From assembly GCA_000934665.2 (NCBI GenBank), contig KZ538216.1, forward strand, positions 1 to 64,000: 64,000 bases of DNA. Reading direction: 5' to 3'. The notes under the pieces were generated by a model that ran no database searches, was not told the origin of the DNA, and saw only the letters and a program-made list of their open reading frames with translations. Numbering within the stretch: the stretch's first letter is position 1; each line of letters opens with the position of its first letter. A program made the position numbers and the translations under genes. This document shows positions 29,876 through 60,080 of the stretch, in pieces. The stretch is from Catajapyx aquilonaris (taxonomy: Eukaryota).

Positions 29876-30737
29876 CTTGTGTGCAATGCGGATGGAACGC
29901 ATTAAACAATAATATAGAGGTGGAGTGGAAATATACGTCCCTTTTTGTCACCATAAGTTCGCATGATGGTATAGGCTTCAAAATATGTGTTGCATTTACT
30001 ATATGGTGTTTGTTACTAGGCAGACATTTGGCGCCACTGTACTATTGCTCTTGTGATCAAACCATGCTAACCTTACACCCTCTCAATAGCGTTTATATGA
30101 TTTATGAACCCTTCCTAATTAAATATCCTTGCACTTCGCATTGTATCAGATAGGGGCAAACTCTGACAGCTGGCGCAACAAATTAATGGCATGGCACAGA
30201 GATATACCTTGGTAACATCTTCCAAATTCTGCATACGATGTGAAGAGAGGGGCACAGAAGTGAAGTTCAAGTAAAATAATCTTGTTCACGACAAGCCCTT
30301 TGCTAAACCTCAACAAAGAAAGCGAGTAGCATTTGTATGAAAGTTGGCCCGTCTTGGGCCTAAAGGCTACTGAAACTTTCTCAAGCTTCATTTCCCTCTG
30401 GGTGATCCCAACTAACTGCTGTTAATCTAACATGACCTTTCCGCTTTATTGAATTTGAAAGTTTATTCTTTCCTTCGCTGCTTGGGGCAATTTCCCGTCT
30501 TCAGTTTCTTGTTACGGTGTAGGTCTCCTTAAACAAGCATCCCCCCCCCCCCTTTCTAACCCCCCTTACCCCTACCCACCATTTCATTTTCCTCCCAATT
30601 CGTTAGAACAAAGAGAAAACCCCTCTAGACATGTTCCAGAACAGGGCAAATATCAATGTACCTCCTCAGAACTCTCCATCCACCCACCTCCCCACCCTAG
30701 AGCTTTAGGAGAGTCAGCAATATGAGTGTGTACTCAC

Positions 30738-30946
30738 CAATCACGGTCAAGTTGACTTTGGAGTTTCGTGTCTGGGCTTCTTTAAAGTCCACGCGACATC
30801 GATATACACCTGCATCTCCTTCCTGCACGTTCTCGATGGCCAAAGAGGCAGGTAGGGTGGTCGATCGGAAGTAGGCCCGGTTTCCAAAAACGTTCTCGTC
30901 CGACCACCTCTCAGCTTCCTGGAACGGCCTCTCCCTAGCATCCACA
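30738..30946 (-). CDS. Next internal coding exon of the same Sidestep-family gene; second half of the V-set Ig domain
   Basis: Acceptor ttttttgtcttcag|T at 30946, donor GTGATTG|gtgagt at 30738; 209 nt, phase 2 in (AG|T = Ser, joins the previous exon in frame) and phase 1 out. Translates (S)VDARERPFQEAERWSDENVFGNRAYFRSTTLPASLAIENVQEGDAGVYRCRVDFKEAQTRNSKVNLTVI, with D-x-G-x-Y-x-C and the YRCRVDF..TRN..VNLTVI motif typical of Sidestep proteins. Confidence 0.95.
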
Positions 30947-31959
30947 CTGAAGACAAAAAAGAACAGTGTTGTAAAGACTGCTGAAGACTGATTTGCACTG
31001 TTGTGATCAGATCAGGGTGAAGGATACAGCAATAATGCAAATTTTAAACACTCCTTCAGACCCTTACACCAACTCTTCAGGTTACATTATGAACACTTGA
31101 TACATAATTCGTACACTATTGTCAAGGTGACATACCAGGCGTACTAATAACAGCAGGCTACTACATCGCCGATATGTACACACAAAATACGTCGTTTTCT
31201 CCCATACAACTATTGTGTTAAAGATTCAGTCGGTTCCGTAATGAAAGGCCTTCCCTCCAAGGAGCCAAGTTGATTGCAGCCTTAATAACAAGATAGAGTC
31301 GAGCCAATTTTAATATTCGGTATAATAAAGCAATTACTCTTCTTTTCCTTTCCCTCCGATTAGAATACTCCAAGCTGGTTGCGTGATTGCTAGCCCCAGA
31401 GTATGAAAATTAAGGGGGTTTTTGATGCTTTATATAATTACGAGTGGCACAGGCCCGGAGTAATTTTTACGAGGGACGGACTAATGCCGAACGTTGTTTT
31501 GAGCGTGCAGTCCAATTTGCTACAATGTGCAGTTTGTGCACCAGCCCCATTGGATAGCGTCGTAAGCTCAAAATAGCCTGCCAACTATTTTGGAAGGAAG
31601 TATCGACAAGAACTTGGAGCCCCCCCCCCCGCGCTTTTATTTGTTTACCTCGGTAATGACTTTTACTGTACACTATGTTTACTTATGCTGGGTAAACCAG
31701 TAAATGATTAGGTTTTACTGCACTTACGTCGCTTTATGACCCATCGGGCGAAAGGAGACTCAGAATTTTGGAACTCAAATATACTGTGATGCAAAATATT
31801 GTGTGTAATTTTATGTTACCCTATGTGAGTCTAGGGGTTGAACATTAAACTGATTTTTTTCATTTTCTAAGATTATAAATTATTCGATGGAGGCTAAACC
31901 TACTGTTTGATGAAACGGAAAAATCGTAATTCCCTGTACGTGTGACAAGTATGACTTTT

Positions 31960-39173: not shown

Positions 39174-39315
39174 CTATAAATGGGAGTACCCAGGTCTTCT
39201 CGGTACCAAAGCACCAGTAGAACTTCGTCGTGCGGTTTGGGTGGATCCGGAAGAGCAATGTCACAGGGCAAAGACACGGTCCCTTTAATCACAGCTTGCA
39301 CGTGGCTGAGTGGAA
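39174..39315 (-). CDS. Internal coding exon of a Sidestep-family (nephrin-like) Ig superfamily gene; first half of the N-terminal V-set Ig domain
   Basis: Minus strand: acceptor ttctcttattcacag|TT at 39315, donor TATAG|gtaagt at 39174; 142 nt, phase 1 in and phase 2 out. Translates (V)PLSHVQAVIKGTVSLPCDIALPDPPKPHDEVLLVLWYREDLGTPIY(S), with the Ig B-strand LPC, C-strand W and the Sidestep-type LVLWY...PIYS motif. Not in the ORF track. Paralog not assigned. Confidence 0.95.
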
Positions 39316-49768: not shown

Positions 49769-52709
49769 TTGACAGAGACAACCGTGGATACAGTAGCAGT
49801 GGCAATGTATATAGTCTGTAGTCATAGTGCGCTGTGGTTAAAGCAGTTGGGGAGTGATCCTCCTGTCCTCCCCGACCTCTCTATTAAACTTAAATGGGAC
49901 TGATCTTGATTTCCGAATGGAACTCATCCAAGATTAAAGAAGGAAGCCGTGAAGAGCTGGAGGCTACGTGCGCAGCAATCCTGACAAGTGGCTGCAGTTG
50001 TCTCCGGGGCATCTGGGGCTGTACCATCAACTGGCACGTAGGTAGGGAGGAAGGATTTTTTACAATGCTCTTGGGACAGGGTGACTGAGAGGGAACAGTT
50101 ATTGGTTGTGCCGTCGCAGTCGATTCCCCTCCAACACCATCCTCTACTCACCCCCACCCCCACACTCCCTACCTCCGGACCCTTTGATAAATACGAGTCT
50201 TGCCGTGGAAAACCTGTCACAGGAAAATAGGGCACCTCTTCTTGAATAGGACGACTTTCCGGCGGAAAACAATTTCTAGGAGAAAGATGATTACCATTTG
50301 TGAATATGCTGTTATCAGGCGTCAATAAGGAGTTTCCGTTTCTAACGGAAAACAAAAGCGATAAGCGGGCTCCACCCTCCAAGTCCTTCTGCGCCTGAGT
50401 TGTAAAAATCTGGCGCAGGCGCAGGAGCTCGAAACTGGCTAATGGCGAGCAGAACTTAAATGAAAACCCTCTTTTGTTCTACTCCTGTATGAGACCAGGG
50501 CTGCACACAAATTCAATCTGCACACGAATAGAAAATGTAGACAGGTATACGAGCGCCATAGCGCCTAGTCCTGGCAACGCCCAGGATAGTGTGCTCGACA
50601 AGCAGGGGATATTAAGACAGAAATGAAACACGGTTTAATTTCTGCCGTATAATGGAAAAGCTACACTTATCGTCCTCGGAATCTTTTGGCCGAGTGAAGT
50701 GGTTTCGCGGGAGGGCCCAAATATTTAACCGTTTAATTTAAATAATCTGTGTAGCTGGCGGAGAGGCATCCCCCCAGCGATGATTGAGCGTTTCTTCGTT
50801 CCTGATGGAAAAATCCATAGGAACTCGAGTGGTCGTCTTTTGAGAGCTACTTCCGGTGCCTTCATTATCTATAAAAGTTTGCTTTAATGATAGCCGCTCA
50901 GTCAGAAGCTTTTGCTAGCACAGAAAGTTCCTAACCAAGCTAGCCCACTGAATTAGAAGTACATCTGATGCGGGTTGTTCGGGCTGGGCCCTGGTCTGGT
51001 CTACTTTTTCATCCCAAAGGCTGCTGCTTACAAGCTCTCAGGGGATAGGATGATACTGAAAATATACAGTATAAAAGTTGCACAAACCAGCCTGAAAATA
51101 TTTGCAAAAGGTTGCACTGTATACGTGCATACCCGTGATTACTCGATAGCACAGCTCAGTCTTGGCCTAACCAAGTTTCCCACCGAAACACAGGTTTTTT
51201 CAGGGCCGAAAATGGTCCACTAATGGTCTAGACCCCACAACTGCGAGCGCTCCGTGACGACTGATAATGAAGCCACATTAGCACTCAACTCGTGCAAAAT
51301 GGATGAAATAGGCCTCTTGAAACGAACAAAAGACTATCTTATCTGACAGCATTTTTTCGCTCTCTAGCGCGCATACCCACAGCCATTGAACTTTGTGATA
51401 ACAGCAGCGTCCCTCACGTTTCCTCACCAACAACAAGTCCTTTTTTTGGGCTATACCGGGGAGCAGTTACTATATAGAAATAAATTTTTCATATTTATCC
51501 CTGTCTACCTAAGGGCTTAATGACTGGAGCATACACAGTTGGAAAAACGCAAATATTGCATAGAAGCGCTGGGGGGTTTCAATGAATTAAAGATGAGCAG
51601 GGAATTTCTCTTGAGCGTATATATACAGGGTTGGATGCTGGGTTGAATTGGTTTGGATCATGCTCATCATTTCCAGGCTGTGATTTATCTCAGTTAGCGG
51701 ATCCAGGAGTAATGTGATTCGACATCTGGCCCCTCCACTTCCCTTTCAATTCGCAGAAACATGACACTAAACAGAGTGATCACGGCCTACATCCACCACT
51801 CCAATGCGGCCAAACTTTTTTTTTTCGAAAGCGAAAAAATCATTAGAGTAATTATTCCCATTTTCCTGATTCACACAGATAAATCACAATACTGTGAGCA
51901 GGAAGAAAATTTCCGGTTGCCCGTCGCTTGCACTGAACATCATCAATTACGTCTGGACGAAATGTTGGAAAAGTGTGTATCACCCGGATTCGCACAACCT
52001 ATGGATGCCAATGGGATCACTGCAAATTATGGCCTATAATAACACCGCTTTTCGATCTGCCGATTTTTTTAAACAGTTGTGGAGTAATTATGGTTTAGGC
52101 ACGAAACCAGAGGCACGGATATTTTAATACGGTATAACACAGTGTATTACATGTAAAAAATTTATGTTTCACACAATGGTATCATGGAATTGATTTACAT
52201 CCTGTTGTAATGTTCCGTGTCAAAGCATTAACATTGCAAGGTATAACAAACTCTGAAAACATTTTTCCAGTGCGGGATGCCTCATTTTAGTATTACCTTG
52301 CGTTTGTTACATTATGAAATGAACTGTTTTTATTCTCTCTGTATAGATTCCCTTATAAACTTACAGTACTCTTCAACGAAAAGGGAGATCATTACAACAA
52401 CAGAAATTATAGTTTCGCATGTAATTTTTTCAGTACTCATACTTAACTCTTAAATTATACACGCGGTGATGAGCCATTAAATTAAAGCAAGATTCTCCGG
52501 TTTCCCTATTCCAAAACAATGTAACATGATTTAAGCCTGTCAGGGTGCATGGAAGCATGATTTTGCACTCTTACAATAGAACAAGTGCCCAACTCCAGCC
52601 TGGAAAAATGGTGGAGGCATAAGAAAAAATCGCAATTTCAAAATGATTTACACCACACGTGCAGATGTAGTTTTTATATATGACCGGAAGGGCTGTGTCA
52701 TTATGACAC

Positions 52710-54210: not shown

Positions 54211-56103
54211 TTTCCACATTTTTCATGAAGAATTTATAATGCACAGTGAAGTACAAACCAACCACATCATTTTTGTGTAAAATGAACGTTGATTTAGTAA
54301 CCCTTTCATGGCGGCTCAATTTGGATAATTATAGTCAGGGCGTGCACTGCAGTCTAATCGTAATTTATTTTCTGGTATGTGTGAAGGTGACGAACGAATA
54401 TTTTTCACCAATAAAAAGCAACAAAAACATTTCGTCAGTAGATATTGTAATGCCATATATTTTCATTCGTGTTGTATTAGTATTTAGAATACAAAGGCTG
54501 CTGATTGGCTGCTATTAATTCCCAATACAATACAGCCCACCTTCGTCCACAAACTACCGTATTACCCAAGGACTTTTGCACTGAGAGGTCCATGACTGAA
54601 ACAAGCAGGAAGTGTATACGCTCCAGTGTCCCTATCCCTGAACAACTCCGCAAGAGCAAAATCCTTCCGACCCTTGCTTTTCCTCTCTGCCCTCTCCATG
54701 TCTGATCCGGCTTTATTACGTATACTTTGAGGACAGAAAGGACAAAAAAAAAAGCAAGTCAGGCCAAAAAAGCAGTGGTGAAGGAAGCAGGGTGGGTGGG
54801 AGGGACGGTCGGAAAGGAAATCTTGAATCGAGCCCGAAACAGCTGACTCGCTTTGCAAGGAAAGTGCTGCGTGTAGCGTTGGGGAGGCAAGGAATAGCCC
54901 CATCCAAAGAGAGTAGTGGATCAAGGCAGGAGGCAAAGCTCGGGGGAAGCGTTATTGGAAAGTGGCCTACCCAAAATGGGACACCGATGGGAGAGCCCAT
55001 TCAAGGAGGTTACACCAGGCGCAATAACACTGGGCGCATTCTAACCTCCCTCCTTCCCTCCCTCCCCGGACCTTACCCACCGATTCAACTACTGTAATAT
55101 GGGCTGGCCCCGAGGAGGCCCGGACAAATTCCAGCTAAATCCTTTCTCCTAAAGCCTAATACATACAGTATTACCAGAAGTGGAAGGAATGCGGGAGAGA
55201 GAGAGAAAAAAAAATCAGAAATGTGTGCAAGGGAATCAACTGGCGGTTTGACCACATGGATATGACGAATATTATGTATTCCTCAGGTGGCAATAGGCCA
55301 GGTAGTTTTTATTTATTAAGTAATGGATTTCTTCTACAGAGCCCTACACGATTATTTGTTGGATTAAGTAACCTCGTATCAGCATTTTATCCACATTCAT
55401 ACAGTTTTTTTATTATTTAAAAAAATCTGAATTATTATGCTACAGTACAGCTACAGCTAAATGAAACCTGAGATGCCACAGTTTCTTCATGAAATACGTG
55501 GAGTTGAAGTCTTTCAGGGATCAGATCCTAGCTCTCGCCCGTAAGCATGCAACACCATTATATCCCTCTTAAAAACCACACACACGTAGAGTGCTTTTTT
55601 AAAATTAATTTCCCCATAAGGCCATGTACAGTGCTTATTTGATTTTTTGTTATAAACAAGCACGGGCATGTGCAAGCGTCAAATCACAGACTTCACAGTA
55701 TGACAGTAATGAGACTGGTGGTTAAGCATTGTTAGATACTGTGCATGTTCCAGTACAAACATTTGATTGTTGCTAGTTCCAAAATTTTCTAATGCTGGTG
55801 CAATACTGGATCACTGTGTAGTCTACCAACTGAGGTACCAGGCCAGTTAAACAGATATGTTTTGTACTAGCTTGTAAGTTTTTTATTATTCAACCATTAT
55901 ATTTGAACAGTTACAGGAACTCAAAAAAAAATAATCCATTTTACACCAAAGAGAAGCGTTATTTGGAATTCAACTTACTTTAATTTATATTGAGTAGCTT
56001 TTTAAATGTTACGAATCAACAAGCAACAAAGTAACTATAATATTTCCCACGCACTGCCGCTTATTAGAAAAAATTGCTATATTCAGTATTAATTAACAAA
56101 TGG

Positions 56104-56432
56104 CAAGGGAGACGGAGTGGCGCCGCGGTAACGCTCGCGCCCACGGAAGTTAAGGTCCCGGGTTCGATCCCCACCCGGGGTTCCCACCTTCTTTCGTGCA
56201 GAGTTGGGCCATCTCTGGCTTCGTTTCGGGTGGCAATTTCCGATAGACTAAGCCACCCGGGGGAGTTCACAAAATGACCAATTAACGACAGCGCACATGC
56301 ACTTTGCACATCCCCTCCTAACGACCCGTGAAACACACTAAATACTTTCAGTATACTAGTTTCACCACAGATGGTGGTAGCCCACCCCCCTAAACGAGCC
56401 TCAGGCTCGAGCACGGGGTATCAATAAAAAAA
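56104..56432 (+). mobile_element. tRNA-derived SINE, third family, apparently full length
   Basis: A box tggcgccgcgg (56118-56128), B box ggttcgatccc (56161-56171), CpG-rich body, caataaaaaaaa tail, and a perfect 13-bp TSD aattaacaaatgg at 56091-56103 and 56433-56445. Confidence 0.9.
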
Positions 56433-58339
56433 AATTAACAAATGGTGCAGTAGATGAGGGCCATTCTTGGACTTCTAATTTTTCTAAAACTCTGCCAGAC
56501 TTAATGCATGTGGAGAGCCAAACAAAGAAAAAAATTGGTGACTCCAAACACTGCACTAATAATAATTAATCAGCTGACACTAAATAATAACTGAAAAGTG
56601 GCTGCATTGACCACACCAATACAGACTCGGGCAATCATATAGTGCACAGGCAGTTACAAACTGAGCCTTGCATTTCATGACGTGAGAACATTAAAATTAT
56701 ATGAAACAAATTTTTATGGTAACTTATGTACAATCCTTCCTATGTGATCATCTTCCAGAAAGTTTTGAGATTTCTTTGCATTCATTTTTGCAACAAATTT
56801 TATACATACTAATGTACTATTACTTTACTTTTACTATTGCTATTGATGTTGTATAAAGCATTGTTGTGCTAGAGTTGTGTTCTCACTCACACACTTGGTC
56901 ATGTCATTATCTTGACTTATAATAATTATGCCATTAGATCCAGGATATAGGAATATGCCACATTCCATACTGTTGGAAAAGAAACGTCATGCATTCAGTA
57001 TATGGCTGATGCTAACAACAAGGTTTTAAAGGTGCAATTATATTAGTGGACAGAGTCTGAAGGCAAGAGAGCAGGCACATTTGAACTGTGTTGCTCTTTA
57101 ATTGCACTTAAGATCTTACTGCAGGGACAGTGTTATAATGGAAACATAAGACAGCATAACACTTGGTACTCATTAGGGTTATGCTATTCCTAAACTGATC
57201 CTGTTCAGAATCATCTCTCCCCTAACCTGTTAATCTCACTACCTAAAACATAATAGGGGAGCACTGACTGGTCAATGGGAGCTTTAGATATGGAAGAAAA
57301 TCTCCAGATTTCATCATAGCATAATGAAGGGGTTTAATAGATCAGATTTATATCTCTTTGTAGCGCTCAGTCAATGAAATTTCAATAATGTGAAATGTCT
57401 CTAACATGTTTGAGATTTGTGTATCTGTATGCTGAAACTTTCACACAGTTTTAGAAGTGATTGTAAATGAAACTTGTGTATCTCTCTTGTTAAATGCTTT
57501 CTCATTTGGACATGCCAAATGTTGAAGATAATTGGACACCTAAGTTTCTCTTCTCCTTCAAGCCACTCTTCATACACAATGTGGCAACATGGGTTTTTAC
57601 AATGGAAAAAATGGGGACACATCAATTTAATTTAGGTTAATGCTTAACAAACTATAAGTGACTAAAAATTTTGACAGCATGTACCATTGCCATTAAAATT
57701 TAATACATTAATCCTCAAAGTTTCTCTACTGACTTGTAGGTACTTTAAATACAATGATATTTGAAGCCCAGACTTTCACAATTCAGAGTGCACACAAGAA
57801 ATTATATTCACTATTTCATCCAATACTGTCACAAGCAACTTCTTGCACTACAAATGATCGAGGTACATTGCAAAAACAATCATCCAAATAAAATGCCAAA
57901 TTATTCTTCAAATGTAATGCCTAATTAAATATTTTTAAAGATATACTGTAACATAATTTCATGCCTGTACAAAAAAAATGGCAATTATCATGTAAAGACC
58001 TGCATTTGTACAAAAACCGATTATGATCCTATCTACTCTGGTATAAAATAACCTTACTGAATTCGTGAGTCACAAAAATTGATTGCCATCCCCAACAGCT
58101 CATCCCCCCCCCCCCTACCCCCTCCCAGAGAGAGATCAATCCTCCCAACTCTTTATTTTACCACTATAGTACTGGTGATATCCAGCCATATACTAACTCT
58201 TGCATATATTATCGCATGAATATAGTAACAGAAACAAACTTGCTACATACACCATCGTACAAAAACTTTAATTCCTTTTCTTTAAAATAATATATTATCA
58301 TGATAGGTATACCCCCCAATTATCATCAGCTTGTGTTCC

Positions 58340-58448
58340 TCATTCAGGTAGGGCCTCATTCAGCAGGGCCTCATTCCGCAGGGCCTGCACTGCTGCGAGA
58401 AGAGTATATTGCTCTTCGCAAGGCTCTTCGTCACCAAAAAAATCCCTC
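58340..58448 (-). CDS. Exon 2 of the putative Myb/SANT-like gene
   Basis: Strong acceptor tcttctctcatttcttcag|G at 58448, phase-compatible with exon 1; reads RDFFGDEEPCEEQYTLLAAVQALRNEALLNEALPE* (TGA 58342-58340). AATAAA on the minus strand at 58157-58152. Confidence 0.55.
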
Positions 58449-58669
58449 CTGAAGAAATGAGAGAAGACATCATTCAATCAAAACATGTCGTTTAGTACTA
58501 CCAATTTTTCTTGAATTGCAGAACAATTATGGCGTTAAAAAAAGCCTCTCAGGTTAGGTTTATAAAGTGGTGCACTGCCCAAGTTAAGTGGAGGGGGATG
58601 GTCAGCCATATGGACCAACCCTCGCTTTAATTCTAGCCTTGCTGTTACATTATGTAAAGTGACAGTTAC

Positions 58670-58917
58670 TTATTCGAAATACATTGTGTATACCTGTCAT
58701 ACATGCACATCAAGACGATTGTTTTCATATGGCAGTCAATCCCGGTGAAGTTCTTCTGCATGGCCGCCGAAAAGACCTCTGCTAGATATGCCCATGATTC
58801 AACCCCACCCACGAAGGGGTTCAGCGCAAGGACGTGCCGTAGCAGCCAACGCTCTTCATGCCTCCATTCCTCTTCCTCTTCTTGGGTGGGGTACCGGTGA
58901 TGCTCTCCGAAGACCAT
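58670..58917 (-). CDS. Exon 1 of a small Myb/SANT-like (trihelix-type) DNA-binding protein gene, PIF/Harbinger accessory-gene-like
   Basis: caaacATGG start at 58917; reads MVFGEHHRYPTQEEEEEWRHEERWLLRHVLALNPFVGGVESWAYLAEVFSAAMQKNFTGIDCHMKTIVLMCMYDRYTQCISN(K), with W..EE..LL..V...NPF...W..LA...C..K...L spacing like SANT/Myb helices. Phase-2 donor AA|gtaact after 58670; an alternative phase-2 donor AG|gtatac follows 58694. Confidence 0.6.
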
Positions 58918-59880
58918 GTTTGACGAGAAATTTGTGAAAGATGTCTAACCAGAAACCAGCCTTGCTCAGGTCACAGGAGCGAGCAGATTAATTCTTGTGT
59001 AACGCATGCGCATTCAGGAGGACGCAACGAGCTCAGATAGCAGGCGGCAACTAGAGAAGGGGGACAACCGGCCTCCATCTTTGATCCAGATTGTGACAAC
59101 CAATTGAAGGAAGTGGCGGAAATTTGAAAACAGCACATGTACAATTAAATCAAAAATTACTTAGCACTTATGCACTTGTTGTTCTGAGCCTCACTGTACT
59201 AGGTACAGTATGCCACACGGAGCATCGCACGAGCACCAAACTCGGGTGGTAGGTGCACTTGGGTAATCCAAAACTATAGAGCATGTCACGAAGCCAATAT
59301 CAGTGACGAGTAAGGAACGGGAGCCGTGTCTACGACCTGACCTAACCTAACCTAAAATTACAGTCACCACAAAACCTGAATAAAGTGTAACAAAGAAGCG
59401 TCTGTGTGTGGGGAGGGGGAAAGGTTGCATGTGTTTAACGCTAACCTGTAACAAGAGCAGCGAGATGGTTGTTGTTGTTATTGTTGATGGTGACAATGAC
59501 TTGGCACTCTAGTCAGCGTCTCAAAATCGATGTAAAAAGTAGCAAAATTTTTGAGCTACTTCTTTGGTCACAAAGCATTGCTGGAGCCAGGGCTTACCTG
59601 AGGTCATTGAGGTCAACACTATCATGTGACAAAATTATTGTACAATAACATGATTAAAAATTGCAGACGTCATATAGTGAAATAAAATCCCCAAAATGGA
59701 TCACTAGTATCCTGCAAGAAAATAAACCTAAGCTGTATGGGAAATTGATAACATTATTAAGACTATTTTGACGTAAGTTGTGGACTGTTCCAATACACTT
59801 AGTCATATACGTTTTCAACACCATGAATTTCGCAGGTGCCTAAGAAATTATTAGCAATGATTTGCTAGTCAGCTCTATAA

Positions 59881-60080
59881 TACAGGGTCATCGAAAAAGA
59901 ATGTCCATTTTAAAAACCCTATAACTCGAAAACTTGCATATAGTACATATCTCAATGATTTAAGTTTCGAAATGCTAGGAAATGTCTGAAGTTTGGGTCG
60001 TACCATAGGGAGTGCTGACGGTATATCATGCCTAAACAGACAGTGCGCACTCTAATCCGATATAATTTCTTGCTGTTTCC
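59881..60080 (+). mobile_element. One end of a Tc1/mariner-like DNA transposon adjacent to an assembly gap
   Basis: TA|cagggtcatcgaaaaagaatgtccattttaaaaaccctataactcgaaaac resembles mariner-type termini; no partner end found; N-run at 60081-60091. Confidence 0.5.

Follow-up and report, generated by a model that had tools for sequence, protein, structure and literature searches.

Structure of the locus

The window, the whole stretch of DNA that was analysed, is 64 kb long, and all coordinates are positions within it unless a contig or locus is named. On its minus strand we read directly from the sequence the two-exon gene that an earlier note had described (Table 1). The start context, the open first exon, the intron of GT-AG type with its pyrimidine tract, the in-phase second exon and its stop codon are all present, and the predicted spliced product comprises 118 codons. 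The AATAAA reported about 180 nt downstream was likewise found, as was the sequence cgcatgcgca upstream of the gene (59003-59012, plus-strand reading). The gene had also been described as clean; instead, its stop codon arises in a tandem repeat of 15-nt units, the third of which has 16 nt and is thereby frame-shifted. Exon 1 has two candidate 5' splice sites. The AG/GT of the upstream donor (58694) is common to 3/3 gene copies, and an in-frame TAA inside the downstream donor ends an unspliced product of 83 residues. Since the window holds 38 ATG-started ORFs of at least 80 aa, the length of the frame is uninformative by itself. We also considered and rejected coding by the other strand and coding that runs on into the intron (mismatches of 5/6/2 by position; the plus-strand frames score lower), and a search for an RNA hosted in the intron gave no Rfam match at E 1. 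Two sets of DNA reads, which may be the assembly's own source, have no variant letters within the gene. In one further read set of unknown kind (X5), which was used to check expression, coverage was limited to a probable SINE at 56.1-56.4 kb; the control Ig exon was equally uncovered, so this check is uninformative.

Upstream of the gene is a promoter-like cluster of motifs, which we take to be NRF-1-like (59012-59003), YY1-like (59081), ETS-like (59114) and CHR/E2F-like (59128-59116). A 25-mer within the cluster (59109-59133) is unique in the genome. The 10-mer cgcatgcgca occurs once in the 99-kb contig, and the NRF-1-like 9-mer has a frequency of about 2-4 per 100 kb in other loci; given these frequencies, the NRF-1-like site lends modest support to a promoter. 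Near transposon genes, promoter motifs showed no enrichment.

Downstream on the same strand lie two exon segments of an immunoglobulin (Ig) gene. The gene described here had been placed upstream of, or nested in, a Sidestep locus; of this, the Ig V-set exon on the same strand is borne out by Pfam, whereas the name Sidestep is a label that we presume to apply. The first (signal-peptide) exon of the Ig gene was not found, one weak candidate lying at 52440. The 60 kb that precede the Ig exon (contig 39.4-99 kb, 179/341 ORFs scanned) showed no other recognisable gene, so the first intron of the Ig gene may be very long. The two-exon gene is tied to the Ig gene by position and strand only, and a literature search produced no relevant report of such a gene, whether Myb-like or derived from a transposon, at sidestep loci.

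Table 1. Positions in the window of the features discussed in the text
Feature	Position	Strand	Remarks
Second half of Ig V-set domain, Sidestep-like gene	30733..30951 (ends approximate)	-	Pfam V-set E 3.8e-7
First Ig V-domain exon, Sidestep-like gene	39174..39315	-	19 kb downstream of the Myb-like gene
Candidate polyadenylation signal AATAAA	58152..58157	-	183 nt past the stop
15-nt tandem repeat, 3.2 units, forming the C-terminus	58338..58386	-	third unit 16 nt, yields the stop
Predicted exon 2	58340..58448	-	in phase; 35 codons and TGA (58342-58340)
Predicted GT-AG intron	58449..58669	-	221 nt; acceptor with 14/15 pyrimidines
Downstream 5' splice site TAA/GTAACT	58664..58672	-	exon end 58670; 118-aa product
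Exon 1, coding part	58670..58917	-	248 nt open; ATG at 58917 in caaacATGG; 82 2/3 codons
Upstream 5' splice site CAG/GTATAC	58688..58696	-	exon end 58694; in phase; 110-aa product
Promoter-like cluster	59001..59133	-	presumed NRF-1-like, YY1-like, ETS-like and CHR/E2F-like motifs
MITE TIR relic (77%)	59153..59337	-	185 bp, positions 37-209 of a 448-bp TIR; about 190-235 nt upstream of the gene

Sister copies and coding constraint

With the DNA of the gene as query, the organism's own genome (285.6 Mb in 20,583 contigs) yielded three candidates in all (3 of 3): the gene itself and two sisters, on contigs C3346 (74%) and C5197 (79%). A 22-nt motif across the downstream donor has exactly 3 occurrences genome-wide (at most 2 mismatches), and with the C3346 copy as query no further family member was found. 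The C3346 sister spans from about codon 25 to just short of the acceptor and carries in-frame stops, and the C5197 sister consists of the last part of exon 1 plus some 11 bases of the intron; exon 2 and the 5' end are in neither. The sisters are dispersed, have stops or lost ends, and share no flanks. Read depth over the gene (27.8) equals that of the flanking contigs (about 26-30; read set X1), so no near-identical copies have been collapsed in the assembly, and the lack of close copies indicates that the gene is not young. Thus, the copy-number check suggested earlier revealed no near-identical dispersed copies, only two old broken fragments; on these matches, the gene is the one member of an old family of three copies that is still unbroken. 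A two-copy non-coding segment (75%; L152:1501-1684, on contig C2438, and L022:1851-2037) starts exactly where the likeness of the C3346 sister to the window ends. The C2438 segment was examined as a candidate and rejected, having no link to the gene.

Compared with the C3346 sister over 41 codon pairs without stops, exon 1 has a pS of 0.60 (16.5/27.5) and a pN of 0.19 (17.5/91.7; Fisher p 1.3e-4), and compared with the C5197 sister over 25 codons a pS of 0.79 (11/14) and a pN of 0.21 (12/57.5; Fisher p 9e-5), the two tests not being independent of each other. Among the six frames, conservation is highest in the annotated one (BLOSUM62 3.6-3.7 per codon, against at most 2.8), and the gaps relative to the C3346 sister measure 3, 12 and 9 nt. 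Since pS lies far above pN and the annotated frame is the best conserved, exon 1 is real coding DNA that was under protein constraint at some time.

The intron is less simple to fit in: of 207 columns aligned to the C3346 sister, 39 differ (19%; 10 gaps), a divergence well under pS (p 2e-5); gap-optimised alignment inflates identity. Third-position changes also fall off at the upstream donor: relative to the C3346 sister there are 17/35 before 58694 and 0/8 after it (p 0.011), and relative to the C5197 sister 11/17 and 2/8 (p 0.077). Because these changes stop there, the comparison leans towards 58694 as the true donor. The low divergence of the intron and dual-donor stretch points either to a conserved non-coding signal or to a recombinant history; the conservation of the dual donor is partly a matter of ascertainment, as this stretch seeded the searches. 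Taken by itself, the stretch 58449-58693 is much better conserved with the C3346 sister (L022:1515-1838) than are the synonymous sites of the adjoining exon.

In a neutral simulation, a dead two-exon frame of 118 codons survived 10% divergence in 11% of cases without indels and in 0.7% with indels, and 5% divergence in 8-34%. Such low odds of neutral survival leave room for selection up to recent times, which they favour.

A probable Myb/SANT-like domain

Exon 1 probably carries a three-helix domain of Myb/SANT-like type, at about residues 18-75. The remote searches were made with exon 1 or with alignment A3 as query, and the spliced protein was scored against home-made profiles. In the Atlas, the ten best family matches of exon 1 all belong to one Myb clan (10/10; best 0.83, recognition 3245), and unnamed clusters score 0.80-0.81, scores below 0.9 being leads only. 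Against a PF13837-type (trihelix) profile built from 29/30 loci of the genome itself, the spliced protein scored 3.8 bits, a value reached by 27/2000 shuffles (p about 0.01); the alignment runs over helices 2-3 and puts both W42 and helix 3 in register. A profile of PF13873 type (24/30 loci, 2 of them extracted in the wrong frame) gave 5.6 bits, reached by 12/2000 shuffles, in three non-colinear pieces. AlphaFold placed three helices (12-31, 40-56 and 62-81) in both models, at a pLDDT of only 55-56.

Myb-like domains have a characteristic aromatic spacing and a usual place for the third aromatic. W18, W42 and Y73 are in this register, and the third W is T in 3/3 copies. Bulky, spaced aromatic residues are named as a feature of the Myb-like domain in the available part of PMC9392472. 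A regular expression for the Myb register matched the ORF of the gene and 0/100,000 shuffles, but also 0/29 true PF13837 domains; it was discarded because it had been fitted after the fact.

The formal searches gave no match. With exon 1 as query, Pfam gave no family, whether over 75 aa at E 10 or over 92 aa at E 0.01, no profile match above the cut-off placed it in PF13837, PF13873 or the PF00249 clan, and the locus is absent from the own-genome lists of PF13837 and PF13873 matches, which are lists of candidates. No protein at E 0.001 or better was found among 1.84 billion representatives, and three word-based protein searches, a weak method for remote relatives, gave 0 matches. Foldseek, run on a low-confidence model, returned nothing at E 0.001. 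A wide structural search returned helical bundles of a generic kind (best Z 8.3, rmsd 9.6) and listed no Myb chain, which excludes nothing with a model of pLDDT 56; both fold searches used one of the two models. Four PDB sequence matches were set aside as being at chance level, and three metagenome loci that match 21 residues were taken as pattern-selected chance. Of the identity proposed earlier, then, a probable domain stands, on the Atlas, the own-genome profiles and the helices, whereas neither Pfam nor Foldseek provides a match that passes a threshold.

Transposon-related sequences around the gene

The genome itself has 153 matches to DDE_Tnp_4, 76 to PF13837 and 84 to PF13873; by these counts, two-gene elements are abundant in it. 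Many open transposase frames of 300-530 aa are found at loci L026-L055, several of them beside exonuclease-like frames, an arrangement that we take to be of ISL2EU type; these open frames suggest recent activity of the group in this genome. On the 98,993-bp contig that contains the window, no DDE_Tnp_4 transposase was detected by tblastn with 38 ORFs, by two home-made profiles or by Pfam on 179/341 contig ORFs, in agreement with the earlier statement that the gene has no transposase partner. The spliced protein has no similarity to the 1.5-kb flanks of 30/153 DDE_Tnp_4 matches or to 53 Myb-like domains of the same genome. The C3346 sister is followed 4 kb further on, in the same orientation, by a relic of about 70 codons of the C-terminus of a Harbinger-type transposase (C3346:12044-12255, L075:2044-2255; iE 0.006), to which Pfam gave no match. 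It is the only match in about 258 kb scanned, with 0 in 41 control loci, and lends weak support to a Harbinger origin.

A search for a pair of terminal inverted repeats (TIRs) spanning the gene gave only chance inverted matches of 12-16 nt, a search that decayed TIRs would escape, and no short TIRs with a 3-bp target duplication, a PIF/Harbinger trait, were found at the gene. The earlier statement that no TIRs are visible nearby nevertheless needs correction, for a 185-bp TIR relic lies at 59153-59337. The relic matches 40 other places at 76-78% and belongs to a young MITE family of 0.75-1.35 kb with 448-bp TIRs that are 97.8% alike (L003:379-1709 and 8 further loci) and an internal 180-bp copy of part of the TIR. 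Since the outer end of the relic faces the gene, which therefore lies outside the element, and no partner TIR is present on the contig, we regard it as a separate old insertion and not as the carrier of the gene. Gene sequence was found in 0 of the 19 MITE loci fetched.

Two abundant repeats lie on either side of the gene. A young repeat of very high copy number at about 56100-56440 (97-100% matches, 610 candidates) is probably a SINE; the summed read depth over it is thousands of times that of its flanks. Positions 59873-60008 contain the end of another high-copy repeat (84-88%, 850 candidates), which from its terminal letters is presumably a Tc1/mariner-type MITE.

Origin and present status of the gene

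With about even confidence, we read the gene as the last unbroken accessory DNA-binding gene of an old, extinct, low-copy family of DNA transposons, most likely of the two-gene PIF/Harbinger type; such an origin is plausible. In the parent element, the Myb/SANT-like protein would have bound the element ends and recruited the transposase, and the constraint on the protein would date from the active life of the element, the rest of which would have been deleted. What is made today would be at most an acidic protein of 83, 110 or 118 residues, probably without function, with a weakened recognition helix and a C-terminus shortened by a slip in the tandem repeat. Codons 74 and 78, R and K in both sisters, are D and Q in the gene copy. 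Over residues 18-83 the net charge is +1, against +2 to +14 in 29/29 own-genome PF13837 domains, a comparison that indicates no basic DNA-contacting surface in the gene's domain. Against a transposon remnant, the parent element is unseen, no sister having exon 2, a terminus or an adjoining transposase, and the protein has no likeness to the Myb-like domains (53) or transposase-locus flanks (30) compared. The Myb call passes no threshold and the C3346 relic is weak. Moreover, the gene is not young, yet a dead frame rarely survives 10% neutral divergence, and the gene has kept its start context, splice sites, AATAAA and promoter-like motifs.

The same signals, with the intact frame, the single-copy depth (27.8 versus 26-30), the lack of a TIR pair and the low odds of neutral survival, speak for a domesticated host gene. 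Such a gene would be derived from a transposon, kept by selection and expressed from a promoter of its own in the Ig gene's 5' region; its small product would act as a chromatin or transposase-binding factor and would not bind DNA strongly. Of the features by which the available part of PMC9710019 recognises domestication, the gene has an intact coding region and is single-copy without TIR or target-site duplication (TSD), two distant broken sisters existing elsewhere. We consider domestication possible but less likely than a remnant, as the stop is the product of a repeat slip, the changes R-to-D and K-to-Q occurred on the branch of the gene copy, and the changes unique to that copy in codons 63-82 comprise 6 altered residues and 3 clearly synonymous ones. 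In addition, protein searches gave no relative (the word-based ones being weak), and the gene has no adjacent co-domesticated transposase, which is the usual insect pattern in what is available of PMC9710019. Considerably less likely is a lineage-specific host family of small three-helix proteins that never derived from a transposon and left two pseudogene fragments. This would agree with the lack of any transposase or terminus tied to the window copy and of similarity to Harbinger partners, but the truncated sisters are dispersed in unrelated flanks, one of them near a weak transposase relic, and a search of public proteins gave no relatives. Quite improbable is a Myb/SANT mini-protein of an unnamed short-loop family, kept by the host and weakened in DNA binding. 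Its tandem 5' splice sites and in-frame stop, conserved above the neighbouring synonymous sites, would form a regulated splicing switch, with longer forms on one side and, on the other, an 83-residue form made of the domain alone. The protein would either decoy transposases or exert local regulation within the 5' region of the Sidestep-family gene. The intron of the P-element repressor offers an analogy for such a switch.

A chance ORF with chance splice signals in an old non-coding repeat is very improbable. The abundance of long ATG ORFs in the window (38 of at least 80 aa), the lack of a Pfam match and of independent support for exon 2, and a pN of 0.19 that equals the intron divergence of 0.19 would all be compatible with it, but a third-position bias and conservative replacements are seen in the annotated frame only, and the gaps in exon 1 relative to the C3346 sister are of 3, 12 and 9 nt. 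For exon 1, these patterns disfavour chance. To the proposal of the earlier note that the gene might be the cargo of a young non-autonomous element we give hardly any credence. A TIR-like segment does lie 235 nt upstream of the ATG, but it is a 77% relic whose outer end points towards the gene and which lacks a partner on the contig, and 0/19 MITE loci carry gene sequence. The gene being single-copy by depth, its nearest relatives being 74-79% identical and broken, and the contig containing no transposase or flanking TIR pair, this proposal is refuted as far as the present assembly goes.

As a transposon remnant, the gene would be an ordinary trace of a two-gene DNA transposon and would belong to a Myb-like subfamily missed by current profiles. 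Should orthologs and spliced reads come to light, this would be a case of the Myb-like gene domesticated by itself, in a genome of arthropod type; published insect domestications are transposase-only or paired in the available part of PMC9710019. A domesticated gene would moreover offer a young case in which to study how genes of this kind are retained, and its conserved dual-donor stretch would be worth a splicing study.

Comparison with known systems

Harbinger Myb-like proteins bind TIRs and recruit the transposase, according to the portion of PMC9392472 available. By analogy, the present gene most likely works or worked like the Myb-like (SANT/trihelix, MADF) second gene of PIF/Harbinger elements. 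Like such second genes it is small and spliced, with three predicted helices, and its W18, W42 and helix-3 register align weakly to the own-genome PF13837 profile. Unlike them, it has no Pfam match, its third aromatic is missing from the usual place in 3/3 copies, its loop is shorter, its protein of about 110-118 aa is acidic, and no transposase or short TIRs lie alongside.

As a lone, single-copy, intact Myb-like gene without element ends, it also resembles the domesticated NAIF1 and MSANTD1-4, which differ from it in being syntenic across jawed vertebrates and expressed (PMC9392472, available part); protein searches found no sequence relation to them. With the insect co-domesticated MADF genes APM1/2 and LPM2, as described in the accessible text of PMC9710019, it shares an arthropod-type genome, an intact spliced frame and the lack of TIR and TSD. 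APM1/2 and LPM2, however, adjoin a domesticated transposase and have orthologs with synteny and dN/dS below 1, whereas the present gene has no partner in the 99-kb contig.

The MITE TIR relic upstream is unrelated to the Myb-like gene. Its family resembles Sola1-type MITEs in the 4-bp AWWT target duplication, seen in 9/9 full copies examined, AWWT being given as a hallmark of Sola1 in the available part of PMC3845634. Its TIR of 448 bp, an unusual length for this kind of target, is far longer than the 28-36 nt reported there for Sola1_NA.
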